A DNA stretch of 64,000 nucleotides from Pristiophorus japonicus (GCF_044704955.1 NC_091983.1:218736001-218800000), one strand, 5' to 3'; counted from the stretch's first letter, positions 1,796-55,474 are shown. Numbers and translations: made by a program. The notes: generated from the sequence alone by a model not told the origin.

Positions 1796-1858
1796 GTGAA
1801 CATGTCTCCTAACCTGTCATCAAAACACGCACCTCTCAACAAGAACATCTATCAACAG
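1796..1858 (+). CDS. TTLL15-like (tubulin-tyrosine ligase-like ATP-grasp enzyme), internal exon A; upstream exons lie before the window
   Basis: Acceptor ttgcatcacag|GTG and donor CAG|gtcagt; 63 nt, phase 0/0. Encodes VNMSPNLSSKHAPLNKNIYQQ, matching the TTL (E)VNxSP motif in its TTLL15-type form NMSPNLSSxH..N..Y.Q. Confidence 0.85.
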
Positions 1859-1919
1859 GTCAGTCGGCAAAATTTGAGAAGTAGAACGACTCTGTTCGGT
1901 TTTTCAGGGGAGATACACT

Positions 1920-4900
1920 GGGCCGTAATGTGTGGCCCCTGCGTGTGCGTACAAGGTGTGCACGCTCCCGTAAGGGCCGCGCAAGTTCCGGGTTTTCTCG
2001 CGCGAAGCGCATGCGCAAAAAAACTGAACTTATGATCTGTCACCTGTCCCTGGGAAAAGGGCATTCACAGGCGGAGAGTTGGGCTATTTGCCCAACTTCT
2101 GCCCAGTGAAGGCTCGTGAAATTCTTACGCCTGGTAATGCCTGCTTTTACAAGAGTTTAAAAAAACATAAAAATAACATTTTATCAATCATTTATACATT
2201 AAAAACCCTCTGCAATAAGCTAAGTTTATTTTTTAGCCCCGTTAAAACATATACATTTTATTTTTCAAAAAATTAAATTTTTGTTTTAAAAATTTAACTA
2301 AATGCCACTTTAATCAATTTTAAATATGTAATGGTGTTGTATATGCTGACTATGGAAGTACTCTATGTGTAGTCACTGTGAGATTGTATAAGATGGAGAC
2401 TTGTTTACCTGATGTATTATTAGTAAGGTTCACACCATGTACATACATGCTGGCACCACTAGAGGGTGCAACTGGTGGAGACTGGGGGTTTCCTGCCCTG
2501 GTGGCAGGGTCCTGTATAAAAGGCTGCGCACCATGCTTGCATAGCACTCTGGAGTTTGGAATATAGGACCAAGGTCACTACGGTTCAAATACAACACATT
2601 GCCTTGTGGAGTCATTCATAAGTACACTATAGACATAACAACTGCCGACGAAAATAAGAACTTTCACATGATTATGGCTAGCTTTGGCACACTAAAAGAC
2701 TTTGCAGAGGGTGATGATTGGGATGCCTTCACAGAAAGTTCGAGCAATATTTCGTGGCAAACGACCTGGCAGGGGACACGGACGCATCGGCGGAGAAACG
2801 CAAGGCTATACTGCTGACCAGTTGTGGGCCCGAGGTCTACCGCCTCGTCAGGGACTTGCTGGCACCCACAAAGGCCAAAGATAAGACATACAACGAGCTG
2901 ACTGAACTAATTCGCGACCAACTTAAACCAAAGGAGAGCATCCTCACGACCAGGCACAGATTCTACACGCATTGTAGACCTGAGGGCCAGGAGATTGCAA
3001 AATATGCTGCCGACCTCAGGAGACTTGCAGCACCGTTTGAGTTTGGCACACCTCAACGAAGCATTGCGAGACATCTTCGTTATAGGAATTGGCCACGAGG
3101 GCCTCCTTCACAAGCTACTATCTGTCGACACCACAGTCAACCTGCAGAAAGCCCATCGGCATCACAGGCATCACTTGCAGCGCCAAGCAAATCATTCAGC
3201 CTGTGGACTCAAACCTGGCAAGTACTGTACACAGAATGATGCCTTTCACAGGCAAGACTGTAGAACATGGCTCTGCCCAGGGCAGAGAGCACAGACCTCA
3301 GGGTTCCAGAATTCAGAGTCCGCCGAGGGGTGCTAATCGAGTAGCACCATGCTGGTGTTGCGGAGAAAACCATAGGGCTCAACCAGTGTCTGTTTGCGGA
3401 GTACGTATGCAAAGCCTGTAATACGAAGGGCCACCTCCAGCGCATGTGTAAAAGAAATACGACTCACCGTGTAGCAGAGGAGTCGGTAGATGACTTTGAA
3501 TCCAGCAGGAAGTATGATGATTTGGCCAGAGAGGCAGCTCAGCCCCAAGAAGAAGTGTATGGAGTGTATACCTACACCACCGATTATCCTCCAGTGAAGA
3601 TGGAAGTCGAGATGAACGGCGTTCCAGTCTTCATGGAAGTGGACACGGGAGTGAGCCAGTCAGTGATGAGCCAGATTGCCTTCGAGAGGCTGTGGACATA
3701 AAACGACCCCAGCTGATTCCAGTGCAGGAAAAGTTCCGCACCTACACCAAGGAGCCGATCCCAGTCCTTGGTAGTGCAGATGTAAGTGTAATCCATAATG
3801 GCCTGATGCATAAGTTATCTCTGTGGATTGTTGCAGGTGATGGTCCAACGCTACTCGGAAGAAGGTGGATGGGGAAGATCCAGTGGAAATGGGAAGATCT
3901 TTTCACTACAACAATCGACGCCCCCCGTGCTCAGAGCAAAACCTCACCTTCGCTTGGGCAAGGCACCAGAGAACAGACCAGCGCAGCACCTGAGGCACAG
4001 ACCGTCCATCACAACTGCGTGGCAATGATACCTTCCCGGCTCCAGTGGCAGGACTCCTGGCGAGGAAGATCGAATTCACAAGTACCTTCCCAGCGTTTGT
4101 GGCAGAATCATGGGAGAGAAGGATCAAGACAGTCGACCTCGAAGACCGAGGCAAGATGGCGTTCTTGTTGCAGCGAGGAGCAGCGTGGTTGAAAAGAAAG
4201 ATGGCCGCGGCAATATCATGAGGTGCAACGCTGTGGGGTATAACAAAGGATCTGATTGGGTTAAAGCCAGCAGGGTTCTCTTAAAGGAGACCTGCAACCA
4301 ACTGAACTTAAAGAGACATTGTATGCATGGCAATCAATGTAACAAACCGATTAAGATTGTGAACAGAATGTTATTGCGAGATGGCGGCACTGTAAAGAAT
4401 AGAATGTTGTTGTGAGATGTTGGTACCAGTCCTAATATAAAGAACCAAATGTTGTTGCGAGATGTCGGCAATAGACTGTCCCCTAGAGCAGCAATCGAGC
4501 GAATTTGGGAGGTCTATCCCACGCTGCAGGCACCCGATGGCACCATTTGCCACGGACCTGTGCCAATACGTGCAGTCGGCCGCCGCTGCCCACCACCCGG
4601 GTGGAGATGGCGCAGCCCCCAGACCCAGTCGCTACCTCGGCCATGTCCGGGAGTGAAAGGTCAGGACCAACGAGTTCCCCAAACGGGACCTGGAACAGCC
4701 AGGTTCCCAACACCATGAGTGAGCAAGCAAAAGACTCTGCAGCCCTCAAAGGAGGACACAGAGGCCACACACATCTGTGGCTCTGCCCACCACTAGGCAA
4801 AGGCAAAGGCCCTGAGCCCTGACTCGGTGAGCGAACCAAGCCCTCCCTGCTAGCAGGGGGCGCAGCACCGCCATCAGATGACTAGGACCCCGTCCGGTTG

Positions 4901-5942
4901 CTCTAGAACTAGCGTCCTCGCATACCTGTACTGCTACCTCAGTAATGACCATGATGAAACCATGAATGCAATCTACCCAATCCTGGCCCGACCGTAAAAC
5001 GTAACGAATGTAAGTCACGGAACCTAGGTGCCACGATGCAAACTGAAAAAATATATTTTCCTCCTTTCTTTGAAATTGCACTGTGTCTGATCCTGTATGT
5101 TAATGGAACGGGCCAGCTGCATGATCTCGCTGTTGGGGTGGGAGGATGGTGGGGGAGGGAAATGAATGTATGTAGCCATGGACACACACACATCGATCAC
5201 ACCCAGAACCCACTGGAACCTCCACCGCATCATTGAACCATCCAATCTGATAACCACTACCCAACGTTGTGGCAAAAGGACTTAGGGGCTAACAGGGAGA
5301 GGGCCAAGCCAAAGCACAGCCAAGGTGCAAGGGCTATTGGGACTTAAGTCTGGGGAGAGCTAAGCCAGAGCACATAGTGCAAAGGTAATTGGCACAAAGG
5401 ACTTGGGGGGAGAGTGATGTTGTATATGCTGACTGTGGATGTGCTCTATGTGTAGTCACTGTGAGATTGTATAAGATGGAGCCTTGTTTATCTGAAGGAC
5501 TATCAATGAGGTTCACACGGTGTACATACATGCTGGCGCCCCTAGAAGGTGCAACTGTTGGAGACCGGGGGTTTCCTGCCCTGGTGGCAGGGTCCTGTAT
5601 AAAAGGCTGCACACCATGCATGCACAGCACTCTGAGTTTGGAATAAAGGACCAAGGTCACTACAGTTCAAGTACAACACATTGCCTTGTGGAGTCATTCA
5701 TAAGTACACTATAGACATAACAATGGGAATTCCCTTCTTTTATTGGTTGGGCTGGCCCACGTGATCCATGGGACGTTTGCGAACCGCATGCGCCTCTGAG
5801 ACGTGGGCCTCTACCTGCGGGTACCCGGAGAGGCCCAGGACCGTGAGTTTCTGTACTTCCCGCACCACCAGGTACGCAGGCATTTTATTTGTAGATCAGA
5901 GACATTTCCCTGCGGGAAGCCTCCAACCGCAAATTCAGAGCC
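1920..5942. mobile_element. Non-autonomous GC-rich DNA transposon (Harbinger-like MITE) interrupted by the LTR element
   Basis: Imperfect termini gggccgtaatgtgtgg ... ccgcaaattcagagcc; halves at 1920-2334 and 5723-5942. Confidence 0.4.
2335..5722 (+). mobile_element. Gypsy (Mag-like) LTR retrotransposon, non-autonomous (gag + protease only)
   Basis: LTRs at 2335-2640 and 5418-5722 (TG...CA), 4-bp TSD ATGG on both sides, PBS-like actgccgacgaa and PPT ggggggagagtga. Gag at 2670-3450 has a double Cys/His knuckle and the protease has VDTG. No RT, RNase H or integrase is present. Confidence 0.92.
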
Positions 5943-5944
5943 AA

Positions 5945-6140
5945 TATCCTGAGTTTGAATTCAGCCCAGTCTGATGGGATGAAAGTCTCCTCTCTGCCTG
6001 ACATTTTTAAGATTCCTGCATGAAGTACATGGTGGTTTCAGTCCAGTTCCTATTGGTTACGATTCCACAATACAAATCTACCTGTAATTCACAAAAAGAG
6101 AAACATCAGTCTCACCCAAGGAAACCACAAAAACACCATT
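5945..6140 (+). mobile_element. tRNA-derived SINE fragment (AmnSINE2-like from memory)
   Basis: B-box-like gagtttgaattcagccc followed by tcagtccagttccta. Related fragments lie near 24280-24340 and 56700-56840. Confidence 0.4.
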
Positions 6141-6167
6141 GTGGGGAATGGAAATGTCACATTAGTG

Positions 6168-7765
6168 CAGTGTTGTCCAATACATTAGTCACAAGCCACA
6201 TGTGGCTAATTGGGAATGTAAATGTGACTAATTATGTTTTGATTAGTAAATAAAAATTGAGTAATTGATGCTGCCATTGGGAATTTTTGATCTCAGTACA
6301 CATATTCTCACAGTGCATGCTTGTGTACTTTAACCCTTTTGTGCATTTGTTAGTAAAATGACAAGATGAAAAGGAGAGTGTGCAAGTGTTATTTGATCGT
6401 TGTTTGTGCTTTACTCCTTGGTTAATGCTTATTGGTTATCTGATAAAATGGAATGTTACACAGGTGAATGAGTGGAAACACCAGCAACATTATATAGAAA
6501 AGGGAGCTGTGATCGTGGTCAGCTCAACCAATCGGAATAACAGCTCCAGGCCAGAAGAAGACAGCAAGTCCAACCTATAATGAGGTGTTCCAACAGGGCA
6601 TGTCATGGCAAAGAGCACGTATCATCCAACCACGTTCTGGATGGAGAACAGGGGCGGGTTGGCAGGTCTCGCTGTCTGAGTCAACATACTCAGCATTCGC
6701 TCCGATGAACATAAGAACATAAGAAATAGGAACAGGAGTAGGCTTATTGGCCCCTCGAGCCTGCTCCGCCATTCAATAAGATCATGGCTGATCTGATCAT
6801 GGACTTAGCTCTACTTCCCCATTCACTCCCCATAACCCCTTATCCCCTTATCGTTTAAGAAACTGTCTATCTCTGTCCTAAATTCATTCAATGTCCCAGC
6901 TTCCACAGCTCTCTGAGGCAGCGAATTCCACAGATTTACAACCCTCTGAGAGAAGAAATTCTTCCTCATCTCTGTTTTAAATGGGCGGCCCCTTATTCTA
7001 AAATCATGCCCTCTAGTTCTAGTCTCCCCAATCAATGGAAACATCCTCTCTGCATCCACCTTGTCAAGCCCCCTCATAATCTTATACGTTTCGATAAGAT
7101 CACCTCTTATTCTTCTGAATTCCAATGAGTAGAGGCCCAACCTACTCAACCTTTCCTCATAAGTCAACCCCCTCATCCCCGGAATCAACCGAGTGAACCT
7201 TCTCTGAACTGCCTCCAAAGCAAGTATATCCTTGAGTAAATATGGAAACCAAAACTGCACGCAGTATTCCAGGTGTGGCCTCACTAATACCCTGTATAAC
7301 TGTAGCAAGACCTCCTTACTTTTATACTCCATTCCCTTTGCAATAAAGGCCAAGATACCATTGGCCTTCCTGATCACTTGCTGCACCTGCTTACTATCCT
7401 TTTGTGTTTCATGCACAAGTACCCCCAAAGTCAAAGTACTGCCTGTAACTATTGGACAAAACCTAGAAGCTGCACTGAGGTGTGCTGTCTGATAAATTCA
7501 TGCCATAATTCCAAACCTTGGTGAACGAGAAAGACTGCAAAGTTTTGCACTGAATGGTAGTAGATGTATGTGAAATAAATATACAGGTGAAGTACATTTA
7601 CCTGTAGTGTATATAAGGCGTTTTCTATTAAAATTAGTGCATGTGGCTAAAAGGGTGTTGCTGTGGTCACGCCTGGCATGGACTTGATGGGCTGAATGGC
7701 TTCCTTCTGTGCTGTAATGACTCTATGACTTTAATAATGACTCTATGTGACTATGGACAACACTG
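6168..7765. mobile_element. Non-autonomous hAT (Charlie/MER3-like) DNA transposon with a nested CR1
   Basis: Perfect TIR CAGTGTTGTCCA/TGGACAACACTG, perfect 8-bp TSD CATTAGTG (6160-6167 and 7766-7773), and subterminal catgtggcta at both ends. Confidence 0.88.
6706..7430 (-). mobile_element. 5'-truncated CR1/HER1 LINE
   Basis: ORF 6823..7434 is an ORF2 C-terminus; the 3' UTR hairpin and (ttcttatg)n tail are present. Confidence 0.93.
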
Positions 7766-7882
7766 CATTAGTGCAATAAGGAGCACTCTTTACATTCTTT
7801 ACGCTGCCTTGACCTGCTTGGGTGTATGGAGAGATGAAGAATTTTAATTCTCTGGAGTGTCCATCCCCAAGGCTCTTAGATT

Positions 7883-8021
7883 AGTACAAAAGCAAAATAC
7901 TGCGGATGCTGGAATCTGAAATAAAAACAGAAAATGCTGGGAGTACTCAGCAGGTCAGGCAGCATCTGTGGAGAGAGAGAAATCGAGTTAACATTTCAGG
8001 TCGATGACCCTTCGCCAGAAC
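7883..8021 (-). mobile_element. Penelope-like terminal repeat with a degenerate hammerhead ribozyme
   Basis: The minus strand reads CTGGCGA-AGGGTC-ATC-GACCT-GAAA-TGTTAAC followed by tgctgcctgacctgctgag. A related copy is at 37339-37486. Confidence 0.65.
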
Positions 8022-8254
8022 AGGGCTCTTAGACTATTAGTGGGTTTTCGTAGTTTGTAACTTCTTCGAATGTAACACCAAGCAGTAAAGATACAGTGTG
8101 ACGAGATTGCAGTGGTGGGACTAATTTTGCTACATGTAGAGAGTTAGCTCCCCAGCGGGCTTAGTTTGTAAAGGTAATGTGCAATGGAACTATACTGACG
8201 AGGAGGTCTCAGCTGAGTGCAGATTTATACCAGGTGCTGTTAATTTTTTTGCAG

Positions 8255-8319
8255 GTTGTATTCAGTACTCTAAACCTCGTGGGTGTCGCCAAGAGGATTG
8301 TGAGGAGCGAGAAAGAGAG
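8255..8319 (+). CDS. TTLL15-like exon B
   Basis: Acceptor tttttttgcag|GTT and donor AG|gtaaag; 65 nt, phase 0/2. Encodes VVFSTLNLVGVAKRIVRSEKE and continues exon A in frame (YQQ|VVF..LVG). Confidence 0.85.
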
Positions 8320-9396
8320 GTAAAGTAGCTGGAGCTCAGCACAAGAACTCTACTGAGGGGTAAGGGATGAGGGTGGGCAGGGACCACAGCTGAAAACAAA
8401 AACCTCCACCCCCGGAATAGGCTTTCTGATTGGGCAATGGTTGCGATACGCTCATTCCAGGTCAGTTTTAATTTAGCTGATTTTTCTGACCCACACGTGA
8501 GGGGATGAGGGATGTGAATTGTAATGTATTTGTTTCAGGGGTTCTTTGCTTAATAGAAATGAGTTGCTATGAACTCTTAAGAACTAGTTGTTTTGTTAAC
8601 AAAGGTTTAACAATCACACTATACATTACCAGTTCATCCACTAGGCTCACAACTGCATACCTCAACTGACTGGGGTTTTGTTGAGTCTTGTGAACCTCAC
8701 GTGACTGGCTAAGCCACTCACAATGCAACAGCTCTTCAAACCTGTGAGCATACTCACAGGTGCATACATTACACTGCTTCCCTTTTTTTTAGAAGCAAGG
8801 TATTTATACAATATTTCAAAGATTCCTTATCATGATTATAATTTTACAAATGTGACTGCTGAGCCGGAGTATCTTGTTGTGAGCGTTTAGCTTCCTCCTG
8901 CTCCGACCTCCATTTCTTTGCAGTTGGCTGGCTATGCCTGTTTTCTACATTCTTATTTGACTCAGGAGACTGTCTTGGGGAATTTCTGTTTTCATGGCGT
9001 GTAGCTCAGGATTCCTGACCTCTCTTCCTGTGTCCTCTTGAGTTTCCTTGGAACCCTTACATCAGTCCTAGTGTTAGCTTTCTTCCTAAGATCTTGATAT
9101 TCCCAATTATCAATACCCTGTCTAGTTGGTTTGCATTTCCATGTTGATCTTCTCAACTGAACCCCAACACCACCTCCCCCCCTCGGAAGATACACAGTCT
9201 CTGCAAGATTGTCCCATACCCGCAGAACCGCCTTCAGTCGGATGCATCTGAGTTGATGGAGATATGGACGTTGTGACCGTTGTGTCCATTAAAGTACTTG
9301 GACCTGCCAACTCACTGATCATCGTCCAAGTTAAGCTCATAATCATCTACTCGTGGTACCGAAGGTGCATCACTCACTAGAAACATTTGATCCACA

Positions 9397-11150
9397 TGAC
9401 TGCTAATGTAGTACCCTTGTTTAAGAAGGGTAAAAGGGATAGGCCGAGTAATTACAGGCCTGACAGCCGAACCTCAGTGGTGGGAAAATTATTGGATAAA
9501 ATCCTGAAAGACAGGATAAATCTGCAAGGATTAATTAGGGACAGTCGGCACAGATTTGTTAAGGGAAGATCGTGTTTGACTAACCTGAATTTTTTGATGA
9601 GCTAACCAGGAGGGTCGATGAGGGTAGTGCGTACGATGTAGTATATATGGACTTTAGCAAAGCTTTTGATAAGGTCCCACATGGTAGACTAGTCATGAAG
9701 GTTAAAGCCCATGGGATACAGGGCAAAGTGGCAAGTTGGATCCAAAATTGGCTTGGAGATAGGAAGCAAAGGGTAATGATTGATGGATGTTTTTGTGACT
9801 GGAAGGATGTTTCCAGTGGGGTTCCGCAGGGCTCAGTACTGGGTCCCTTGCTTTTTGTGGTATATATCAACGATTTAGATTTGAATATAGGGAGTATGAT
9901 TAAGAAGTTTGCAGACGACACTAAAATTGGCTGTGTGGTTGATAATGAAGAGGAAAGTCATGAGCTGCAGGAGGATATCAATCTACTGGTCAGGTGGGCA
10001 GAACAGTGGCAAGTGGAATTTAATTCAGAGAAGTGTGAGGTGATGCACTTTAGGAGGGCTAATAAGGAAAGGGTATACACATTAATTGGTAGGCTACTTA
10101 ATAGTGTAGACGAACAAAGGGACCTTGGAGTGCTTGTCCACAGATCCCTGAAAGTAGCAGGTCAGGTGGATAAGGTGGTTAAGAAGGCATACGGAATGCT
10201 TGCCTTTATTGGCCGAGGCACAGAATATAAGAGCAGGGAGGTTATGCTTAAATTGTATAATACTTTGGTTAGGCCACAGCTGGAGTACTGCGTGCAATTC
10301 TGGTCACCGTATTATAGGAAGGATGTGATTGCACTCGAGAGGATGCAGAGGAGATTTACTAGGATGCTGCCTGGAATGGAGAATCTTAGTTATGAGGACA
10401 GATTGGGTAGGCTGGGTTTGTTCTCTTTGGAACAGAGGAGGTTGAGAGGAGACCTCATTGAGGTGTACAAAATATTGAAGGGCCTGGACATAGTGGATAG
10501 TAAGGGCCTATTTCCATTGGTGGATGGAGTCTATTACGAGGGTGCATAGTTTTAAGGTGGTTGGTGGAAGGTTTAGAGGGAATTTGAGGGGGGGCTTCTT
10601 TACGCAGAGGATTGTGGGGATCTGGAACTCACTGCCTGGAAGAGTGGTGGATGCAGAAACCCTCACCACTTTTAAGAGATGGTTGGATGGGCACTTAAAG
10701 TGCAGTAACCTGCAGGGTTACGGACCTAGAGCTGGTAATTGGGATGACCATTTGTTGGACGGCACAGATATAATGGTAAATACTGCAGGGAATAGAATAC
10801 GGCCAGCGTGATCACCTGAGCTATTTTCGTTCGCCTGGATGGGTCGGAGAGGAATTTTCCCAGATTGTTTCTCCCTAAATTGGCCTGGGTTTTTATCTGG
10901 TTTTTGCCTCTCCCAGGAGATCACATGACTCAAGGGGGGGAGGACTGTAGATGTTTTTAGTATAAGGGATGTCGCAGTTGTGTGGGCGGACTGGTTGGGC
11001 TGGGTGCACTTTGCCTTTCTGTCATTGTTCATAGGTTTATATGCAACCTTCAGGGCTGCTAATCAAGGACTGTGCGGCTCTTTGTCGGCCGGCGCGGACA
11101 CGATGGGCCGAAATGGCCTCCTTCTGCGCTGTAAATTTCTATGTTTCTAT
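9397..11150 (+). mobile_element. CR1 LINE inserted in the Gypsy element
   Basis: ORF 9647..10549 is an RT (MDFSKAFDKVPH, GVPQGSVLGP, KFADDTK); the 3' tail is tttctatgtttctatg. Confidence 0.93.
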
Positions 11151-12585: not shown

Positions 12586-14751
12586 TGTACCAATGTTCCA
12601 TTTGCGTGGACTTGGCCTTTTTGACGTACTGAGAACTCTGACCTGATCACCCTTCTGAAAGCACCGTTCTTTAATAACGGAATGATAATGTTTCTGCACT
12701 GATTGTGCCTTCTCTACCTTAAGTTCGGTTGCAATAAACTGAGACGTGTCCTCAGTACGCTTCATCAATAATTCTGTTGTAGAATGGGGTGTAGTTCTAT
12801 ATTTGAAAAGACAGTTTGCAAACTGTGCTTCATGCGCACTGATGATCCAGTCTGTAGAACTTGTTTCCGCAAAGCCTCCTAGGCAATCCTGACTGACCTT
12901 TCAGCTGCACCATTCGAAGCAGGATGATATGGTGCTACCAACGTGTGTTTGATATCGTTGTGTCTGGCAAAATTCGCAAATTGCGTGGACCGAAATTGCG
13001 GCCCATTATCTGACACCATTTCTTCGGGCAAAAATATCCCGTAATTCATCCAATGTACGCTCTGTAGTCGTAGATGACCCCCGATGCCGTACTTCCAGCC
13101 ATTTGGAATGGCTATCGATTAGAACCAGAAAATGATCACTGTCCCTCTCGCAAAAATTAATATGTATTCTTTGGAATGGTCTCGTTGGCCAAGTCCATGT
13201 TTACAGCAGCGTTTTAGCTGGCATGGCCCTGCAGACTTGACAGATAGTGCACTTGCTTACTAATACTTCTAAGTTTTTATCCAACCCAGGCCAATAACCA
13301 AAACTTCGGGCCACCGCTTTCATACCTACGATGCCAGTATGCTCAGCGTGAAGTTCCGTCAGGACTTTGGCCCATAGTGCACGAGGAATGACTACTCTCA
13401 GGCCCCATTTTAGATATCCCTGCTCACATGATAATGAAAAGGGTTTTATTCCCTCATCAAAATGCGTCTATTCATCAGACCACCCTCGTAGGGTGTGCTC
13501 ATAGGCCCGCTTTCTGTGTGTGCTCTGCAATAACAGAGGTGGTGACTGGAAAGACCTTATCAACGAAATCTAGAGTAAAGATTGACTGTTCACGGCCAAT
13601 TTCAGAATCTTACTGAGGCAACCTTGAAAGGGCATCCGCCATTGCATTCTGCTTCAATGTACGATACTCGATTCTGTAATCGTGCTGAGACAATAAAGTA
13701 GTCCACCTTTGCATCCTGGAAGCCGCCATAGATGGAATTGCCTTTGGGCCTAGGATAGCTAGTAACGGTTTGTGATCGGTTACTCGCGTGAATTGGCGTC
13801 CCAAGACAAACTGGTGAAACTTTTTAATACCAAATATAATTGCCAAAGCCTCTTTCTCAATCTGGGCATAATTTTGTTCGCTTTTGTTGAGCGTACGCAA
13901 TGCAAAGGCTACTGGTTTTTCCTGTCCATCATTCATAACATGGCTGATCACTCCTCCCACACCATACCCAGAGGCCTCACACGCTAGTCTTAGTTCATGA
14001 GTCACATTATAATGGATGAGAATAGCACTATTGCTCCAGTGTCACTTGCATGTGTCGTATGCATTCTGTTGCTCTTCATTCCATATCCAACGCACCCCTT
14101 TCTTCAATAAATAATGGAGTGGTGTGAGCACCGTTGCTAGTCCAGGAAGGAAACGAGCATAATATTGGACCATGTCTAAAAAGGATCGTAATTCAATAAC
14201 ATTTTTCAGTTCTGGAGCCATGGTGATGGCTTGCACTTTCTCCTTAACTGGTTGGAGACCATTTTCATCTACCCGCAATCCTAGACAAACCATCTCACTG
14301 TATGAATGCACATTTACTCCTCTTCAGCTTCAGATTATGGTCATTGAACCATCTGAACACGTCTAAGATTTCCAGGTTTTCCTTCTCTGTGCTGGTGGCT
14401 ATCAACACATCATCTTGATTACACAAACAATGATTTATTCCCTGTATGATCTGATCCATGGTAGCCTCAAATATCTTTGGTGAGGACTTGATACCATAGG
14501 GCAACTTAGTGTATGAATATAAACCTTTGTGTGTGTTGATTGTCAGATACTGCTGACTATCCTAGTCAATGTGGAGTTGAGCATAGGCGTGGGAGAGATC
14601 TAGTTTTGAGAAGATTTTGGCTCCTGCTGGATCTGCATACAGGTCCTGTGATGTCGGTAAAGACTACAGTTCATCATCAACTGCTCGATTCAGGGTAATT
14701 TTATAATCCCCACGAAGCCGTACTGTTTTGTCTGCCTTCGGAACTGCAACT

Positions 14752-15165
14752 GTGATGGCCAGCGTGCTTTCTTTGATGGGGATGGGGTTGTGCAGGTGGC
14801 CTCAGCCTCTTCCGCAGCCTTGGTGCTTCTGGAGTAGTGGGTGATCTTCTCCTACAATAAAGAAGGGATTGTATTCATGAGAGTCTTCTGAGGTCTTTAA
14901 AGAATGTGCCTATCATGGTCAAATAACTGGAATGCAGTGTGTCGGATGTGAGAAGTAAGAGTTGCAATAGCGGCGAGTATGCGAGTCTGAGGGGAAGGAG
15001 GTGCATTGGTGTGTTCCAGTGATTACAGGGAAGTGAAGTGGGGTGGAGAGTATTGGGAGGCTGGAGGTGTGAGCAGAGAGTAAGAGAGCAGTAAACTTAC
15101 CTTGACAACACTTGTGAGCTCGCTGAACTTTTTGTGGCATTGCAGCCATGGTCTTGGAGCTAGAG
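14752..15165 (-). mobile_element. Harbinger-type Myb/SANT ORF remnant retaining an intron
   Basis: RPWLQCHKKFSELTSVVK|gtaagt (donor near 15100), then ttattgtag|EKITHY (near 14851). This resembles Myb/SANT-like R..QC.KKF.DL...K-EK..HN. Confidence 0.55.
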
Positions 15166-15332
15166 AAAAGAGCAGAGAAAGTGATTCAGAAAGGAGAGCA
15201 GAGAAAGTGACTGAAAGGAGAGCAAAGAAAGTGAGTGAAAGGAGGGAGAGAAAGAGACTGAAAGGAAAGAGAGAAAGTGACTGAAAGGAGAGGAGAGTGA
15301 GTGAGTGAAGGGAGGGCAGAGAAAGTGACTCA
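15165..15332. repeat. GA-rich tandem repeat (agagaaagtgactgaaaggagagc-like)
   Basis: About 6 degenerate units are directly visible. Confidence 0.8.
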
Positions 15333-15411
15333 AAGGATGAAGCTTTGCCCACAAACAACAGAACCTCTTTTTGACATTATCAAACAACGCCGATGCCCTT
15401 TATTTTCACAG

Positions 15412-15505
15412 ATCTGATGAGGCCAGTGAAATGCTTGTTAACGAGAGGGACATCCAAATATATCCCGAGCATTGCATAGAGAACTGCACCTCCTGCGATA
15501 CAAAG
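15412..15505 (+). CDS. TTLL15-like exon C
   Basis: Acceptor tattttcacag|A and donor AAG|gtactt; 94 nt, phase 2/0. AG+A gives Arg, then SDEASEMLVNERDIQIYPEHCIENCTSCDTK. Confidence 0.85.
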
Positions 15506-16203
15506 GTACTTGGACAAGTCACAATAAAAGGTTTGAAATGGCTTCCCCTTGGTTCGCCCTAGTGTGATACAGGAGCCACATTTCCTACAAGTCCCTAGTG
15601 GTGGGGTGCAGCTGCCTTCTACTCGGCACTTCACACTGGTTCAGCAAAGGCCAATAAGTCACTTTGGGGAATAACCAGTCAATGGCACAGTGTGTCGGGG
15701 CTCCTTCATACCTGAAAAACATCCATCATGAAGACTGTGTGTGTGTGTGTGTGAGTGTGTGGGAGGGGAGGGAGGGGGCTAGTGGTGTCAGGGGTGTGTG
15801 GTGGTGAGAGGGTCCCTCTGCAAGTGGAGTGATCTGTCTGCCCCCACAGTAAATGTTTAATCAGGAAAGTTAATGAGGGGAGGGGTGGGGTGAATGCAAC
15901 AGGATTCCTTTCTTGCAGCAGACATGGACTTCAGGTCATGTTATCTCCAAGCATCACCCCGGGTGATAGCAGTGGTTAGTGTGGAGATAGGACCAGCTAC
16001 TGTACTCGTGTTAGTGCTAACCACAGTAATCACTCCAAAAGGTGGTAATTCGGTGGCAGGTCATGATGACCGCTTTCCTGTGCCTGTACCGTACTGGGAG
16101 AGGCGATTGGATTCCACTCCTGGCTCCTGCTGGAAGGAAGGCAGGCATTTCCTGTTGTGGTTTGGAAAGTGCACTAACCTGGTTTTCTTATTTTGTATTG
16201 AAG

Positions 16204-16317
16204 AGATGCAGACTATGCGGACAGTGCCTGTCGACCCGGCTGAAGCCTGCCCTGGAAGAAGCTTTCCTGGAGCATGTGAATCGCGGAAACACCAGACGTG
16301 TGGTTCCTCAGCCGATG
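16204..16317 (+). CDS. TTLL15-like exon D
   Basis: Branch point cactaac, T-rich tract, acceptor ttgaag|AGA and donor ATG|gtaatg; 114 nt, phase 0/0. Encodes RCRLCGQCLSTRLKPALEEAFLEHVNRGNTRRVVPQPM (CxLCxxCL...AFxEHxxRGxxRRxxP). Confidence 0.85.
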
Positions 16318-16350
16318 GTAATGAGCTTGTTCTAATCGATAAAAAACAGA

Positions 16351-17046
16351 GGGGGCGAAATTGCGGACCGCCCCAGTTGGTAACAGCTGCGCCAAAGGCA
16401 GAAGTCCCGCCCCGGCAGCTAAATTGGACTTACCGCCCCGAGAGGAAGTAGAGCGCAAATTCTCGTGCTCTACTTTGTCTCGGGGACAGGACTGAGGCAC
16501 TAACCTTCAGCAATTTTCCAGCACTTCATGCAGAGGCGCATGTCACTGGCAAGAACACAGGGCCCTCCCCTTCCATTAAAGGGAAGGGCACACTGCAGAT
16601 TCTGCATTAGGGAGAAGGGGCCACCACTGGGGAGCGGGGTGCCATGACAGCAGCCCAGAAGCGGAGTGCCGGACCACAACATTGCAGCACGGACCCCGCG
16701 ATTTGAAGAGGGCAAAGCCGCGACCAGTAAGTTGGCCATTTAAAAAAATATCAGCACCGCACCTCTCCTTTAATTTTCGCCCCGCAAGCGGACTAAAGCC
16801 CGCTGTGTACCTCAGGGGCACTGCCAAATTTTCGCCCCGAGGGGAAAATGGGCCGCTGCGGACGTTGATGACGTTGTCATTGCCAGCGCAGCAGCTCGGG
16901 GAACTACCGGCGCTACCGGTTAGCGCCGCCACTAAACTCCCGCGGAATTGCGCTGGAGTCGGTAGCGGCGTCGCGCCTTGGCTGAGAAGTCTTTTGCGTC
17001 CCGGGGGGCACTAACCAGAGGTGCAAACGACCTGAATTTCTGCCCC
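16351..17046. mobile_element. GC-rich MITE (Harbinger-like)
   Basis: Termini gggggcgaaatt ... gaatttctgcccc; internal ttaaaggg motifs are shared with the copies at 21117, 21784 and 40551. Confidence 0.6.
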
Positions 17047-19745: not shown

Positions 19746-19774
19746 CAATTTAGTTCCATAGTCTACAAGCGCTC

Positions 19775-20160: not shown

Positions 20161-20831
20161 ATTTCAAATATTCCTTAGCCATTGAGGCTTCCGATTGCAG
20201 TTTATACAGCACTCTTTCTGCCTTATTGATTCACTGAACTGCAGGATTGGCAGTGGGAATTACAGGGTAGCTTTTCAATTTGATCCCAGTGAGTTTTATA
20301 GCCTTTAGGTCCAGCTCCAGTAATTCACCTAAAAGCTTTTAAGTGAGGAGTAGCAGCATGGAGTAGAGTCAGCACTGAATTGCAATCGGATATTTAATGT
20401 CCCATTACAGATGGTCACTGCCTCGTGCTTCCCAGCTGCTGGGAAATTTAACATTTCCATTTTATGTGAATTGTCATATTTACTAAAATGTCAAAATCTT
20501 AATTTTATTTGCACAATTTCCCCAAAAAGTGTAAATTTGCAACAGGTTGCCCACCCTTACTCCTCAGGATCCCTTGACTATGGAGGGCCAGTATCAGCCA
20601 AAGGTCCCACTTCTGATTGGAGGTTTGTGCACTGTGATTGTGTGTTTATAGATACACATCAGATGAGGACAGGATCAGGCTGGATGTCCATTAAAACTAA
20701 TCATCTAATTTGACAAGAGGGATTTGCCGCACGCACAAGGTATTTGTATCAGTACTCCCTGTGGAGCTGCGCCTCAGCAAGAATCAGTGCTCTCGGGAAA
20801 GGAGCAGAGATGAGTGGGAAAATACTGAGGC

Positions 20832-21112
20832 AGTATGAGGGTTTTGATAGAGTAAATGGGGAGAAACTGTTTCCACTGGCAAGAGGGCCAGTCACCAGAG
20901 GACACAGATTTAAGAAAATTGGCAAAAGAACCAGAGGTGAGATGAGAGTTTTTTTTAACGCAGTGAGTTATTATGATCTGGAATGCACTGCCTGAAAGGG
21001 TGGTGGAAGCAGATTCAATATACTGTAATAACTTTTCAGAGAGAATTGGATAAATACTTGAAAACAAAACATTTCTGGGGCTATGGGGAACGAGATGGGA
21101 AGTGGGACAAAT
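20832..21112 (+). mobile_element. CR1 3' fragment
   Basis: GFDRV..EKLFPL..TRGHRFK. Confidence 0.8.
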
Positions 21113-21783
21113 TAAATGGGGCCAAAATTGCCCCTTTCTATAAGAGCTGTGACTGCCTCAAAGAAGGTCGGTAAAGACTCGCTGCCTAGTCGGTGCGGAA
21201 TCGGCGACATTTCATAAATTGCCCTCCATTTTATTTCCAGCGGTGCTTGCCACCGTGCCGCCCATGTTGCCACCCCGTCAGGTACACGCCGACCCCTTTC
21301 CACCCCACTTGGGAAATTGCCCCGCAGGAGTGGATCGGCTGCCGCTCGGTGCCCCCGACAGCTTACCCCGGCGGGATGCTGTGTGTGGCTGGGCGGCGCG
21401 TCCGCCTTAAAGGGCACGCTGTCGTGGCCGCCATTTTATTTTAACTGTCGGCCGACTCCAAGGTCGGCCCGACAATGGCGCCCACAGGTTCGACCGGGCC
21501 TCCAACAGGTAGCCCGGCACCCCCGAAACCCTCACTTGTGACCCAGTTGGCCAAATTAAACTAACTGCATGATTGGGAGAAAAATCTTTAAGATTGTTGA
21601 GTGCGCCCCTTCCTGTCGGAGGGTAATTTTGGCTCCAATAGCTCTTTCAAAGAGCCGGCACAGGCACGGTGGGCAGAATGACCTTCTTCTGTGCTGTATG
21701 ATTGTAAGCAGACAGAAGAGTGGCACATTAGATTTGACCACCAACTTACCTTTGAATTCCCACTCCAGTGTGCCCTGCACCAT

Positions 21784-22515
21784 GGGCTAGAAATTCTGTA
21801 GATCCCCATTTGGGGCGATAACTATTGAAATCTTGGAAAAGTATCGCCAGGCGATAATGATTTTGTGCTCCCACGAAATTTAACTTTAGCGCTCCAAGAG
21901 AGAAGTGGAGTTCTAAATCAAGCTCTAACCACATCTCTTCGGGCACTGAAGTGCGGGAGTGGGGCGATAGTGGCAGAGCGCTGAACAATGATACGCATCA
22001 GAGGCTGCTTCCCTCGCTCAAAGGGAAGGGCCAGTGATGAGCCACAACATACTTCTGCTCAGTTCTGTGTTGCCAGGCGATCTGCGCGACTGCCATTACA
22101 GCCCCAAACACTCTCAGAGAATGGAGGGCTTGGACATCTTGCAACAATGAAGCGTCGAAAACTTTCAGCAGGCACCATATTGGTGCAAAGTTGGCCTACC
22201 TGAAAACCACTGCCTTTAATTAGTGCTCCCCAAGCGGCCAGTCCTCTTCCTGCTGTTGTTGACGCCCAGCAATACAGCAGGGGGAAGGAGACAGTTTCAC
22301 ATCCGGGGTGGTAACGGGCGCTGTGCACTTTATGACGTCATGGTTGGTGAGGTGCTAGAGGCTAAGGCGGTAAGAGTTAGCAGCAGTGCTAAACCAGCAC
22401 TGAAGTTCGCAGGTGTCGCTGAATTCGCCGCACCCGGTTGCTATTCCTTTAGTGCCCCATTACCGCACCGCCCAGGCGATAACGGGAGGCGCAAAGCAGC
22501 CGAATTTCTTCCCCT
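21784..22515. mobile_element. GC-rich MITE (Harbinger-like)
   Basis: Imperfect TIR gggctagaaattc / gaatttcttcccct, flanked by CAT on both sides (3-bp TSD). A related partial copy is at 21117-21560. Confidence 0.6.
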
Positions 22516-22554
22516 CATGTACCATCCCTGACTGAAAGGTCAGGAATGGCGCCC

Positions 22555-23622
22555 AGTTGCTTCGGATTGGTTACCGGACAGTAAACAGAGAGTAGGAATA
22601 AACAGGTCATTTTCGGATTGGCAGAGTGTAACTAGTGGGGTGGCGCAAGGATCGGTGCTTAGGCCTCAGCTATTCACAATATATATCAATGATTAGGGTG
22701 AGAGGCCCAAATGTAATATATCCAAGTTTTCTGATAGGTGGGAATGTAAGTTGTGAGGAGGATGCAAAGAGACTTCAAAGGGATATAGACAAGCTAAGTG
22801 AGTGGGCAACAACATGGCAAATGAAATATAATGTGGTGAAATGTGAAGTTATCAACAATGGTTGGAAAAATAGAAAAGCAGAGTATTTTTTAAACGGTAA
22901 GAGATTGGGAAATGTTGGTGTTCAGAGGGACCTGGGTGACCTTGTACACAAATCACCAAAAGTGAACATGCAGCTACAGCAAGCATGTAAGAAAGACATT
23001 TGGTATGTTGGCCTTTATTACAAGAGGATTTGAGTATAAGAGCAAAGATGCTTTACTGCAATTATATAGAGCCACACCTGGAGTATTGTGTACAGTTTTG
23101 GTCTCCTTACCTAAGGAAGGATGTATTTGCCATAGAGGGAGGGCAACGAAGGTTCACCAGACTGATTCCTGGGATGGGGGGGATTGCCCTATGAGGAGAG
23201 ATTGAGAGACTGGGCCAAATTCTTTAGAGTTTAGAAGAATGAGAGGTGATCTCATTGAAACATTCCAAATTGTTACAGGGCTTGACAGGGTAGATGCAGG
23301 GAGGATGTTTCCTCTGGCTGGGGAGTCTAGAACCAGAGGTCACAGTCTCAGAATAAGGGGTCGCCATTTAGGACTGAGATGAGGAGACATTTTTTCACTC
23401 AGAGGATGGTGAATCTTTGGCATTCTCTACCCCAGAGGGCTGTGGAGGCTGCGTCATTGAGTATATTCAAGACAGTGATGGCTAGATTTTTGAATATGAA
23501 GGGAATCGAGGGATATGGGGATAGTGCAGGAAAGTGAAGTTGAGGTAGAAGATCAGCCATGATCTTATTGAATGGCGGAGCAGGCTCAAGGGCCCGAATG
23601 GCCTACTCCTGCTCCTATTTCT
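22555..23622 (+). mobile_element. CR1 LINE (decayed)
   Basis: ORFs 22635..23033 and 23000..23194 cover the RT and its C-terminus. Confidence 0.88.
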
Positions 23623-24087
23623 TATAGAAACATAGAAAATAGGTGCAGGAGCAGGCCATTCAGCCCTTCTAGCCTGCACCGCCATTCAATGAGTTCATGG
23701 CTGAACATGCAACTTCAGTACCCCATTCCTGCCTTCTCGCCATACCCCTTGATCCCCCGAGTTGTAAGGACTTCATCTAACTCCCTTTTGAATATATTTA
23801 GTGAATTGGCCTCAACTACTTTCTGTGGTAGAGAATTCCACAGGTTCACCACTCTCTGGGTGAAGAAGTTTCTCCTCATCTCGGTCCTAAATGGCTTACC
23901 CCTTATCCTTAGACTGTGACCTCTGGTTCTGGACTTCCCCAACATTGGGAACATTCTTCCTGCATCCAACCTGTCCAAACCCGTCAGAATTTTAAACGTT
24001 TCTATGAGGTCCCCTCTCACTCTTCTGAACTCCAGTGAATACAAGCCCAGTTGATCCAGTCTTTCTTGATAGGTCAGTCCCACCATC
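23623..24087 (-). mobile_element. CR1 3' end, tail-to-tail with the previous copy
   Basis: ORF 23715..24086; tail tagaaacatagaaa. Confidence 0.9.
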
Positions 24088-24870
24088 CGACACCAGTCTC
24101 AGCCACTAGGGGGAGCCCCTGAAAGCTGCATGTCAAACATGTCCAATTTAGCCATGTCACTGTTGGGAGAAGCTGTATGGAGTGCTGAGTTTGCACACTG
24201 ATGCCCAGTCTCCTAATGCCACCCACTGTGTCAGAGGAGAATCCTGATTCTTGGAGACCTTGATGGCACAAGAAGTTATGAGTTCAGCCCTTCCACATCC
24301 TGGACTTCAGTTTGAATCCAGCCCAGACTGATAGTATGGGAGTCATAGAATCATAGAAGTTTACAGCACAGAAGGAGGCCATTCGGCCCATCGTGTCTGT
24401 GCCAGCCGAAGAAGAGCTACCCAACCTAATCCCACTTTCCAACTCTTGGTCCATAGCCTTGTAGGTTACGACACTTCAAGTGCATATCGATATACCTTTT
24501 AAATATGATGAGGGTTTCTGCCTCTACCACCCTTTCAGGCAGCGAGTTCCAGACTCTCTGGGTGAAAATAATTCTCCTTAACTCCCCTTTAATCCTTCTA
24601 CCAATTACTTTCAATCTATGCCCCCTGGTTATTGACTTCTGCTGAGGGAAATAGGTTCTTCCAACCCACTCTACTAGACCCCTCATAATCTTATACACCT
24701 CAATTAAGTCTCCCCTCAGCCTCCACTGTTCCAAAGAAAACAACCCCAGCCTATCCAATCTTCCCGCATAGCTAAAATTCTCCAGTCCTGACAAATTTCT
24801 CGTAAATCTCTTCACCCTCTCTAGTGTAATCTTTCCTGTAATGTGGTGACCAGAACTGTACGCAGTACTC

Positions 24871-25529
24871 ATCATCATCATCATAGGCAGTCCTTCAAAT
24901 CAAGGATGACTTGCTTCCATGTCAAAAGGTTCATGGGTGTTTCAATGACGGACCTAAAATTCCAGGTCCAAACTAAATCTTGAAGGGTGGAAGATGCCTG
25001 TGCGTGGATTTTTTTAACATGTGGTGACCGTTGCACACCAGCCACCACACGGGCTTGACAGAGCTAGCAAGGGTTAACCAAGACGACTGGACACCTGCTC
25101 TGCTGCACGGACCTAGTGCGCACACATATCGCAGTGTGGGCTGATCCGTGCTGTCCCTGGGCCCTCGCCTCTTCTGGGCCCTGAACTTGCGTCTCTCCTG
25201 GGCCCCAATCACGTCCCTCTACAATCTATTGCCGCTCCCGCTGTACCTGTCCACGCTCCAATCACTGGCCTGGACCTTGGTGACGTCACTTTTCACTGCC
25301 GTTGCTCTCCTGTTCCAGCACGTGCTGCTCCCTGGAGTATTATGCTGCCACGCTGCTCCTTCCGCTCTCCGGCCTGCTCCGATGGTGTTCGCAGACCGGG
25401 GGCCGTGCAGACTGCTGGGCTAGGCTGCCACGCTGCTCCGCCCACTCCCCGGCCTGCTCCGATGGTGCTCCGTGGCAGCCTAGTCCAGCAGTCTGCGTGG
25501 CCCGGGGTCTGCGAGCACCATCGGAGCAG
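24871..25529 (-). mobile_element. RTE-derived non-autonomous short element
   Basis: RTE-type tail (tga)n and 9-bp TSD gcagtactc (24862-24870, 25530-25538). Other copies are at 33720-34290 (+) and 45510-46060 (-). Confidence 0.8.
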
Positions 25530-26078
25530 GCAGTACTCTAGCTGTGGCCTAACTAGTGTTTTATACAGTTCAACCTCCCTGCTCTTGTATTCTATGCCTT
25601 GATTAATACAGGCAAGTATTCCGTATGCCTTCTTAACCACCTTATCTACCAGAGGGTCCAAGGTCCCTCTGTTCCTCTTCACTTCTCAGTATCCTCCCTT
25701 TTATTGTGTATTCCCTTACCTTGTTAGCACTCCCTAAATGCATTACCTCACACTTCTGCAGATTGAATTCCATTTGCCCCTTACTGCCCACTTGACCAGT
25801 TCAGCGATATCTTCCTGCAGTCTACAGCCTTTTTTCCTCACTATCAACCACACAACCAATGTTTGTATCATCTGCAATGCCCCCTACTTTGAAGTCTAAG
25901 TCATTGATATATACCACAAAAAGCTAGTACTGAGCCTTGCGGAACCCCATTGGAAACAGCCTTCCAGTCACAAAAACATGCGTCAACCATTACCCTTTGC
26001 TTTCTGGCACTGACCCAATTTTAGATCCAACTTGCCACTTTCCCTTGGATCCTATGGGCTATTACTTTTGTGACCAGT

Positions 26079-26862
26079 TGGGGTAAAAAGAAGGCTTCTT
26101 TTCCTCAAGGTGGACTCCCTGATATAAGGAGTCGACACCTGCCCTCTCTTGTATAGCGACCATGGAATCACTCAGACTAAACCTTGGTTCAACCGGTTTT
26201 TATTCAAGCATGCAGGGGAAATGTTCTGATGAACACTTTCCCAATCAGAGATTTTACAATTACAATTATACAGTTTTTCGAGGTGTGCGACCCTCCTATA
26301 AAACCACCGCTTGGCTTATTGCTCAGACTGGCTGAGTGGTTCTCCCCCACCTGTCCATCTCCCATGGTGTCAACTTTGCCTCAGTTTCTCATGACATGTT
26401 GATTAACTTTGTTTTCCAGGGTGGTGTCTCCTTATCCCTCTCCCAAGAACTAGTCAAAACTACCAGTCAATACCATCCTGTTCCCATGCTGCTATAATCT
26501 ATGTTCTCAAACATTTGTGTCCTTGTTCTGTACTGGATATGTACGCTTCCCTGAGTCTGTTCTAAGGTTAATCCAACGGATGGTTCAATAACCATCAGGC
26601 ATTGCTGCTTCCCACTTCTTCAACCAATGTAAGCGAGTGTGTAAGCGTGCTTTACATACACAAGCGAGTTTTACATAATCGGTCAATATTACAATCCATA
26701 CCATAAGACAGAGGAACTCCTGATTCCTCAGAAACTCCTAATACTGATAAGCCCTTTTAATCTGGACCACTTTATGTGTCAGATCAATTCACTACCTTCA
26801 GTATCCCTATTCGTGACCCTTGGTCTGTCTCCACTCTAGTGACCGTTTTTTATCCCCTTACA
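26079..26862 (-). mobile_element. Solo LTR (ERV-like or Gypsy)
   Basis: The minus strand reads TGTAAGGGGATAAAAA...TTTTTACCCCA (imperfect terminal inverted repeat) with AATAAA near 26200. It interrupts the CR1 precisely; no TSD is seen. Confidence 0.6.
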
Positions 26863-26935
26863 CTACCATGTCAAAAGCCTTGCTAAAATCCATATGGACT
26901 ACATCAAACACACTGTCCTCATCAACCCTCCTTGT

Positions 26936-27560
26936 TTGGGGGGCAGAGGTTATGAGCTGAAATTGTTGAACTTGATGTTGAGTCCAGAAGGCTGTAAAGT
27001 GCCTAATCGAAAGATGAGGTGCTGTTTCTCGAGCTTGCATTGAGCTTCGTTGGAACAGTGGAGGAGGCCGAGGACGGAGAGGTCAGAGTGGGACTGGAGT
27101 CAGAACAGATGCGACGGGGACGGAGAAACTGGGAGAATGGAATAGAGTCCTTACAGGAAGCAGGTGGGAGGAAGTGTAGTCCAGGTAGCAGTGGGAGTCA
27201 GTGGGCTTATAGTGGATGTTGGTGGATAACCTATCTCCAGAAATGAAGATAGAGAAGTCGAGGAAGGGAAAGGAAGAGTCGGAGATGGAGCATGTGAAGG
27301 TGAGGGAAGGGTGGAAATTGGAAGCCAAGTGAATGAAATTTTCTAGTTCAGGGCGAGAGCAGGAAACGGCACCGATACAGGCATCAATGTACCGCAAAAA
27401 GGTGTGAAGGAGGGACCTAAGTAGGACTGAAACATAGAATGTTCCATATATCCCATGGAAAGGAAGGCATAGCTAGGACCCATGCAGGTTCCCATAGCAA
27501 CACCTTTTATTTGGAGGAAGTGAGTGGAGTCAAAAGAGAAGTTGTTCAGTGTGAGAATAA
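26936..27560 (-). mobile_element. Penelope-like element, internally deleted
   Basis: RT motifs FLQIKGVAMGTCMGPSYA, RYIDAC, FPFLD and YKPTD, plus a GIY-YIG C-terminal LGTLQPSGLN. Confidence 0.85.
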
Positions 27561-27739
27561 TGTGCTTGTTTCTCATCTTGTGTCTGGGTTTCTCACCTTG
27601 ATCGTGAAAATTACATATATACATAAATTTTAATTGCTTTAAACCCAGTTCACAAACTGAAGAGGGCGGGGGAACAGAAAGGAGAGGTGATGTCCTCACA
27701 CTTTAAGAAAAGTTCACCTGTATACTGGTAATCTTACAG

Positions 27740-27859
27740 AGTCAACAAGACATGCAGCGATATCAGCCTTTGGAAGACAGCAGGCTAACGGAGGCCAATC
27801 AGCTGATGGCGTGGTGGTTCCGAGGGAAGTGCCTGCAGGATGCGGGCTGGTGCATGTGA
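27740..27859 (+). CDS. TTLL15-like terminal coding exon E
   Basis: Acceptor atcttacag|AGT; 120 nt including TGA. Encodes SQQDMQRYQPLEDSRLTEANQLMAWWFRGKCLQDAGWCM*, with the N.LM..WF.GKC..D..WC C-terminal signature. Confidence 0.85.
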   Translation, partial: SQQDMQRYQPLEDSRLTEANQLMAWWFRGKCLQDAGWCM

Positions 27860-55300: not shown

Positions 55301-55474
55301 GGAAAGTGGGAGAAGGCGGACCAGCCTTGTATGTGATGCCGTGCAGAGTTGAATCGGCTCCTGGCACTCACTGTCTAGTCTCACTCCAACAAGGTAATGC
55401 AGGGACTCAGAACTGGACATCAGCGACAGAGAGACTACAGGAGGAAACACACAAACTATTGGTTCTGGAATTGC

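Follow-up and report, generated by a model that had tools for sequence, protein, structure and literature searches.

The TTLL15 locus of Pristiophorus japonicus

The window analysed here is the whole stretch of 64,000 nucleotides (G000:C7:218736001-218800000) taken from the 5.9 Gb genome of the shark Pristiophorus japonicus. It carries the last five exons of a gene of the TTLL15 clade, in the family of tubulin tyrosine ligase (TTL). The complete gene has 15 coding exons over approximately 167 kb (G000:C7:218596896 to 218763859), the ten other exons lying 19.6-139.1 kb upstream of the window. The build of the encoded protein suggests a membrane-anchored ligase of the secretory lumen rather than an enzyme of tubulin.

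An earlier reading of the window (the sequence-only reading) had proposed five exons with AG/GT sites, phases 0/0, 0/2, 2/0, 0/0 and 0/stop and an open C-terminus of 151 residues, and all of this was found as proposed, on the + strand: the five exons are exons 11-15 (Table 1), each has a pyrimidine-rich AG acceptor, the donors are GT, and the product equals residues 365-515 of the protein P0001 (515 residues), letter for letter. The Glu of the E-x-N motif, which had been expected to end the preceding exon outside the window, lies at G000:C7:218716433. The gene is not hidden, as that reading had it, being already annotated and named in RefSeq/UniRef, a possibility that the reading itself had allowed for: a search with the fourth window exon returned P0001 at 100% identity, under the name 'probable tubulin polyglutamylase ttll-15 isoform X1' from Pristiophorus japonicus.

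All 15 exons were mapped to the genome. The spliced frame of 1548 bases is open throughout, with no stops or frameshifts in the ten upstream exons, and its translation is P0001 exactly. Thirteen introns are GT-AG and one is GC-AG (the GC donor is that of intron 5, G000:C7:218647947-218652757). A genome-wide search with Pfam TTL gave 57 matches, two of them upstream of the window on the same strand; searched singly, the five window exons, which are too short for it, gave no TTL match. No second close locus was seen in a protein search of the genome, whose first pass was stricter, so that a single locus is a floor.

Splicing was assessed with assembled contigs. Contig 14 of run X5 (2590 bases; the kind of run is not on record) contains abutting pieces at 15410-15502, 16201-16316 and 27739-28050 with no other letters between them, and because it joins exons 13, 14 and 15 without introns, two of the four window junctions are shown directly. 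A contig of DNA run X1 spans 15064-16425 and retains the intron between exons 13 and 14. Among the runs listed for the last exon none is marked as RNA, which says nothing about expression. The other two proposed junctions were not among the X5 pieces: 8319/15412 is within the stretch compared and is absent from the listed contig pieces, and 1858/8255 is outside that stretch. In a comparison with Mustelus, the two sharks differed at 2 of 98 conserved sites (those conserved in non-vertebrate rows) versus 78 of 417 other sites (p=4e-6), and purifying selection is read from this far lower rate of difference at conserved sites. The shark gene is intact, spliced and under purifying selection.

Table 1. 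The TTLL15 gene within the window (positions counted from the first base of the window; aa, residues of P0001; UTR, untranslated region; LINE, long interspersed nuclear element).
Feature	Position	Strand	Phase	Contents
Coding exon 11 of 15	1796-1858	+	0/0	aa 365-385; V-N366-M-S-P-N (metal-binding Asn), Tyr383 at donor pocket
Coding exon 12	8255-8319	+	0/2	aa 386-407; final helix of the ATP-grasp core
Coding exon 13	15412-15505	+	2/0	aa 407-438; C428, C432 and C435, the first half of the six-Cys module; in spliced contig
Coding exon 14	16204-16317	+	0/0	aa 439-476; C440, C443, C446; R-V-V-P strand back to the core; in spliced contig
Coding exon 15	27740-27859	+	0/TGA	aa 477-515; terminal helix, W502, C507, C514; in spliced contig
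Start of 3' UTR	27860-28050	+		spliced contig runs on for 993 more bases beyond the stretch compared
Introns 11-14	within 1859-27739			6396, 7092, 698 and 11422 bases; broken LINE-type and Gypsy-type retroelement pieces

Family membership, phylogeny and range

P0001 matched Pfam TTL (PF03133) over residues 131-394 with 191.3 bits against a cut-off of 20.1, and no other Pfam domain was found. Searches of cluster representatives gave 529 proteins at E 1e-10 or better, and the range was read from the best 120 of these 529. Among the matches listed, other sharks were 78-81% identical to P0001 and the next best (hemichordate, arthropod, amphioxus, mollusc, echinoderm, annelid, sponge, coral and tunicate) were 41-51% identical; most of the latter are named ttll-15, and about one third of the listed rows are unnamed. 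Long relatives (32 rows, mostly TTLL4) were 24-30% identical.

In a tree of 64 rows (quick LG+G4), 43 TTLL15-like rows formed one clade with a branch support (SH-aLRT) of 100, apart from three named TTLL4, three further long proteins and this genome's 15 other loci of the TTL family. These 15 loci were built from 51 of 55 exon pieces (the four left out belong to two further C18 copies); they were not individually named, and six are under half filled. A mixture-model tree of 47 rows gave a TTLL15 clade of 34 rows with SH-aLRT 99. Sharks and lampreys, which may be monophyletic, lie on one side of a branch with support 49. The Pfam match, the clade, which it shares with proteins of the name ttll-15, and an identity of 45-51% to invertebrate TTLL15, compared with 30% or less to TTLL4, bear out the earlier view of a TTLL15-like ATP-grasp ligase outside the ordinary TTL and TTLL proteins. 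On C18 (G000:C18:103594067-103797569, minus strand), three similar TTL-family exon pairs stand in tandem, an arrangement that suggests a local triplication of another TTLL gene.

The named vertebrate members are from Pristiophorus, Mustelus, Scyliorhinus, Lethenteron, Lampetra and Petromyzon. That a cartilaginous fish keeps TTLL15 holds, the shark gene being intact, but among vertebrates the gene is not confined to cartilaginous fish, as lampreys have it too. No bony vertebrate, ray or chimaera was named in the best 120 of 529 matches, and on these missing names TTLL15 was likely lost in all three groups. To our knowledge, mammals have only TTL and TTLL1-13. Non-animal members come from the green algae Mesostigma and Cymbomonas and from one marine protist transcriptome. 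Two bacterial-looking proteins (P0222 and P0244) combine the active-site signature of TTLL15, by fusion, with a kinase-like domain related to HprK that scored below cut-off, and they have neither the anchor nor the Cys module. Two tight patterns, in scans that are insensitive, confirmed no prokaryotic relatives of the animal family or of P0222/P0244 in GTDB; metagenome scans gave one locus only (L077), and atlas searches gave TTL clusters only. In that metagenomic locus (L077:1527-4215), the gene of a bacterial-looking relative is in two pieces of opposite orientation beside a family 2 glycosyltransferase. Branchiostoma has extra TTLL15 paralogues (P0015, P0016 and P0022) with a stem 150-280 residues longer, in which no Pfam match was found.

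The idea that the shark gene is a pseudogene, or one of the known vertebrate TTLLs in a diverged copy, draws on the RefSeq models of two Scyliorhinus species, which lack the first 163-195 residues and could reflect decay in some sharks. For Pristiophorus it is refuted by the open frame, the canonical splice sites, the spliced contig, purifying selection, the single locus seen (a floor, as above) and the separate, strongly supported clade, and we give it practically no weight. Among the Scyliorhinus proteins (P0002-P0005, P0180), the RefSeq models begin at a Met matching residue 164 or 196 and have neither the anchor nor K147; an older draft protein has the anchor, with exon 1 joined to exon 3 and exon 2 omitted. 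Decay and mis-modelling are both possible in that genus. Annotated shark isoforms (P0002, P0006) skip in-frame exon 11, losing N366, or exon 14, losing half of the Cys module.

N-terminal helix and predicted topology

Exon 1, which lies outside the window, encodes a tail (residues 1-13), a hydrophobic helix (14-32) and a stem, after which comes the TTL-fold core (72-395). The helix is likely a signal anchor, a point beyond the reach of the sequence-only reading and one that changes the possible substrates. For a survey of the family, a helix was scored as a 19-residue window before the core with a mean Kyte-Doolittle value of at least 1.6, in 114 rows of 400-600 residues from the first search and in 58 further representatives; only rows with at least 45 residues before Gly86 were counted, and 9 and 5 shorter rows, respectively, were set aside. 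The helix was present in 147 of 158 rows (101/105 and 46/53). As controls, 32 long TTLLs had it in no case within the first 110 residues and in one case anywhere. It was seen in sponge, corals, molluscs, arthropods, nematodes, echinoderms, amphioxus, tunicates, lamprey, sharks and the alga Mesostigma.

The helix began past residue 15 in 85 of 101 rows, a position more in keeping with a signal anchor than with a cleaved signal. The net charge ahead of the helix exceeded that behind it in 93 of 101 rows of the first set (mean +2.9 versus -0.2) and in 32 of 46 rows of the second. By the positive-inside rule, such a charge bias favours a signal anchor with its N-terminus in the cytosol and its C-terminus outside it, which is the layout of Golgi glycosyltransferases and kinases, and on these grounds the same topology is predicted for TTLL15. 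At the level of sequence, the type II layout (short basic tail, single helix, stem, C-terminal catalytic domain) is complete. The glycosylation sequons N154 and N431 are common to P0001 and Mustelus.

Active site

Active-site residues were compared with TTLL6, numbered as in the accessible text of Mahalingan et al. (bioRxiv 10.1101/2020.06.07.139295), and residue counts were made over 88 aligned members. The ATP and metal residues are kept: K147 (87/88) and K186, R251, D351, E364 and N366 (each 88/88) are equivalent to K125, K174, R241, D346, E359 and N361 of TTLL6. The Arg of the D-x-R motif (R219 of TTLL6, R202 of TTL) is Gly228 in 88/88, and the position of TTLL6 G344, Gly in other TTLLs, is Arg349 in 88/88, on the R-x-D strand. 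Arg349 may stand in for the lost phosphate-binding Arg, in a swap between adjoining strands. H362 is replaced by Met and N264 mostly by Asp. Residue 350 of P0001, between the invariant Arg349 and Asp351, is Cys; it is Phe in 75/88 members and in other sharks.

A luminal ATP-binding protein that makes no amide bond (a pseudoenzyme, a partner that acts like a chaperone, or an enzyme whose reaction ends with carboxylate phosphorylation) would agree with the loss, in every member, of an Arg that the accessible part of PMC4431377 describes as conserved and typical of peptide-forming ATP-grasp ligases, with a phosphate (glycine) loop that is three residues shorter and has an invariant His, and with the replacement of H-L-T-N by V-x-D-D-Y. 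We consider it quite unlikely, given that the metal and nucleotide ligands are all invariant, that the new invariant Arg349 stands exactly where other TTLLs have Gly and looks like a swap, and that algal and bacterial-looking members share this signature. To judge from these residues, the enzyme is probably active as a ligase.

It lacks a defining feature of glutamylases. In TTLL6, according to the accessible text of bioRxiv 10.1101/2020.06.07.139295, K283 and K377 bind the donor glutamate and do not vary among glutamylases, K377 being essential; a Tyr at the K377 position of TTL stacks on the donor tyrosine; and the glycylases TTLL3/8/10 have hydrophobic or polar residues at K283/K377 and Arg or Gln at Q180. 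In TTLL15 the K377 position is Tyr383 in all four alignments (Y in 86 and F in 2 of 88). Tyr383 is compatible with the glycylase pattern, but the Q180 loop is three residues shorter and could not be mapped. R191 was considered as an initiase-type Q180 position and was rejected, as it aligns to R182.

The Tyr could also stack on an aromatic amine, and the family is rich in invertebrates, as expected of a membrane-bound small-molecule ligase that joins glutamate to biogenic amines (the gamma-glutamyl amines of invertebrates). Aplysia is said to have an uncloned gamma-glutamylhistamine synthetase activity, and a fragment beside the L077 relative is one that we take to be like a pyridoxal phosphate (PLP) decarboxylase, at this single locus. 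We regard such a role as very unlikely: that fragment has no Pfam match and its locus is rearranged, the gene is kept in algae and sponges, the Aplysia enzyme was not found by title in the literature search, and free substrates would have to reach the lumen.

Cysteine module, surface charge and predicted structure

P0001 has a six-Cys module (428-446) followed by a terminal pair (507 and 514), and each of these eight C-terminal residues is retained in 86-88 of 88 aligned members. Across 181 aligned rows, four sequences had lost Cys in pairs: 435 with 446 in P0168, P0169 and P0230, 432 with 440 in P0139, and 507 with 514 in P0168. Because they are lost in pairs, we infer disulfides 428-443, 432-440, 435-446 and 507-514. 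The module aligns to the place of the microtubule-binding domain of TTLL6 (392-459). The net charge of that stretch has a median of -1 (range -7 to +5), without a cationic microtubule-binding domain, and the net charge of the core has a median of +1 versus +29 to +31 in three TTLL4.

An AlphaFold2 model of P0001 (pLDDT 90.6) comprises a helix (16-52), a disordered linker (53-67) and then the core. Foldseek matched it to TTLL6 at E 5e-22. Fold matching (VIA) gave TTLL6 at Z 30.3 (root-mean-square deviation, rmsd, 4.5 over 367 residues), TTLL7 at Z 30.2 (rmsd 2.3 over 298) and TTL at Z 24.2; the next non-TTL fold had Z 13.3.

The database names ('probable tubulin polyglutamylase' at NCBI, 'tubulin monoglycylase TTLL15' at JGI) imply instead an enzyme tethered to membranes and facing the cytosol, where it would glutamylate or glycylate tubulin or other acidic tails. 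The TTL fold and catalytic residues are present, the nearest solved relatives are the glutamylases TTLL6/7, the lysine K283 may be kept, sequons at active-site Asn would be harmless in the cytosol, and two worm double mutants have weak effects on brood size (PMC7252309). We hold this to be unlikely, in view of the positive charge before the helix in 93/101 rows, the missing basic microtubule-binding stretch, the Tyr in place of K377 and the paired Cys losses. Worm genetics points the same way: within the accessible text of each source, glutamylation staining was unchanged in the mutant (PMC5051658), and axonal glutamylation staining did not drop when ttll-9 and ttll-15 were also deleted (PMC11216746).

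A candidate secretory-pathway ligase

TTL-family peptide tagging is known as a cytosolic tubulin code. Taken together, the sequence features argue for a different role, in which TTLL15 would work in the secretory lumen, and not on tubulin, as an amide ligase that depends on ATP and takes a donor other than glutamate; we think this probable as concerns the location and the ligase activity, to which alone the estimate refers. The N-terminal helix would anchor TTLL15 as a type II membrane protein, with its catalytic domain facing the lumen of the endoplasmic reticulum or Golgi, out of the reach of tubulin. There, by the usual ATP-grasp chemistry, ATP would make an acyl-phosphate on an acceptor carboxylate and an amine would attack it, so that an amino acid or amine would be ligated to a carboxyl group of secreted proteins or glycans; a protein carboxylate is a first guess for the acceptor. 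The donor, the least certain step and a guess, is probably a neutral or aromatic amino acid or an amine rather than glutamate, because Tyr383 replaces Lys377, as in tubulin tyrosine ligase. The layout of a Golgi enzyme, together with the missing glutamylase determinants, makes TTLL15 a candidate writer of an extracellular modification.

Several observations weigh against this proposal. The helix controls are mostly of one subfamily (TTLL4), 11 of 158 rows with a long N-terminus have no helix, and the topology call is drawn from hydropathy and charge. N-glycosylation sequons show no enrichment: N-x-T was below expectation in the first set (51 seen versus 92 expected) and slightly above it in the second (67 versus 52). 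The catalytic Asn366 (88/88) and Asn370 (83/88) are inside N-x-S sequons, and a luminal enzyme must keep both unglycosylated; a Pro after the sequon and a Leu in the middle of N-x-S lower sequon occupancy. In the active site, R219 is essential in TTLL6 (accessible text of bioRxiv 10.1101/2020.06.07.139295), and the second lysine for the donor glutamate, K283, may be kept: MAFFT and hhalign pair it with K295 (K/R in 84/88), but HMMER pairs it with the variable position 291 (K in 20/88). The Cys pairings are drawn from four sequences, and the C-x-x-C spacing could also serve zinc binding. For the negative results in the worm, redundancy or tissue is a possible reason, and one that their authors give.

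The wider reading is evenly balanced in our view: TTLL15 may be a misnamed, ancient secretory ligase, a Golgi-type writer of an undescribed amide modification, found from green algae and sponges up to lampreys and some sharks but lost in bony vertebrates. The shark gene itself is an annotated orthologue of a known subfamily and of modest interest; what is new is the Golgi-like build without glutamylase determinants. If the proposal is true, extracellular molecules receive a similar amide modification, driven by ATP, in most animals, the unchanged tubulin glutamylation of worm ttll-15 deletions is accounted for, TTLL15 no longer counts among the tubulin enzymes in research on worm and fly, and worm and fly genetics are already at hand for finding the modification. 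The shark and lamprey copies place the gene in early vertebrates, and it can be asked which extracellular product vanished with it.

Repeats and neighbouring sequence

The exons had been described as spread among transposons, in agreement with the repeat content: 49% or more of the interval 1796-27859 recurs within the 264 kb examined, and the introns in the window hold remnants of reverse transcriptase, RNase H and integrase. Broken Gypsy-type long terminal repeat (LTR) retrotransposon remnants with pieces of all three lie on the minus strand at 12882-14561 and 29775-32374. A 46-base tandem repeat (5.8 copies, 28064-28329) follows shortly after the stop codon, probably inside the 3' UTR, and minisatellites occupy 55474-56711 (44 bases x 28) and 35882-36918 (27 bases x 39). 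No neighbouring gene was seen by eye in non-repeated frames of the window and of 60 kb upstream of exon 1, an inspection that is weak for short exons.

Comparison with known systems

Literature on ttll-15, among the matches listed, concerns C. elegans only. No description of TTLL15 as a membrane-anchored or secretory ligase was found in the literature searched, which covers few subscription papers (automatic annotation may flag the helix). Searches on secreted TTL-like/CPED1 ligases, Drosophila TTLLs and gene loss in sharks and lampreys gave nothing on TTLL15 by title or abstract start, and the gene ids CG4089 and K07C5.7 gave no literature match. Roles of most fly TTLLs are unknown, according to the accessible part of PMC5701211.

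C. elegans TTLL-15 and invertebrate TTLL15 proteins share with the shark protein the name, the D-x-G and R-x-D signature, the Cys module and the anchor, and two further nematodes have this signature, module and anchor as well; none of the sequences compared was identified as the C. elegans protein. The identity of the invertebrate members to P0001 is 41-51% along most of its length. Compared with them, the shark copy is a vertebrate gene of 15 exons over 167 kb. The literature treats C. elegans TTLL-15 as a tubulin glutamylase; PMC7252309 says of its specificity that it 'has not been tested'. In the accessible text of PMC5051658, ttll-15 has no mouse orthologue and no microtubule-binding domain was found; the word 'transmembrane' occurs 0 times there.

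The glutamylases TTLL4/6/7 have the same TTL-type ATP-grasp fold and the same six ATP and metal residues. TTLL15 differs from them in identity (30% or less), the N-terminal anchor, the changes R219 to Gly, G344 to Arg, K377 to Tyr and N264 mostly to Asp, a Cys module in place of the microtubule-binding domain, and a neutral rather than basic core. TTL has the same fold and a Tyr at the K377 position, but it is separate in the tree and matches at E 1e-6 to 1e-8 by phmmer; one locus of this genome (ownC7b) we take to be TTL by its motif. TTL is a soluble cytosolic enzyme.

The closest precedent for the proposed role is C7orf58/CPED1, for which the accessible text of Anantharaman and Aravind (2010; PMC2824669) predicts a TTL-like ATP-grasp ligase in the secretory pathway that modifies surface polymers, with repeated losses. 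Among the matches listed for P0001, none carries the name CPED1. CPED1 has cadherin-like and PC-esterase domains, whereas P0001, with 515 residues, has the TTL domain only; what the two would have in common is a TTL-like ligase predicted to work outside the cytosol.

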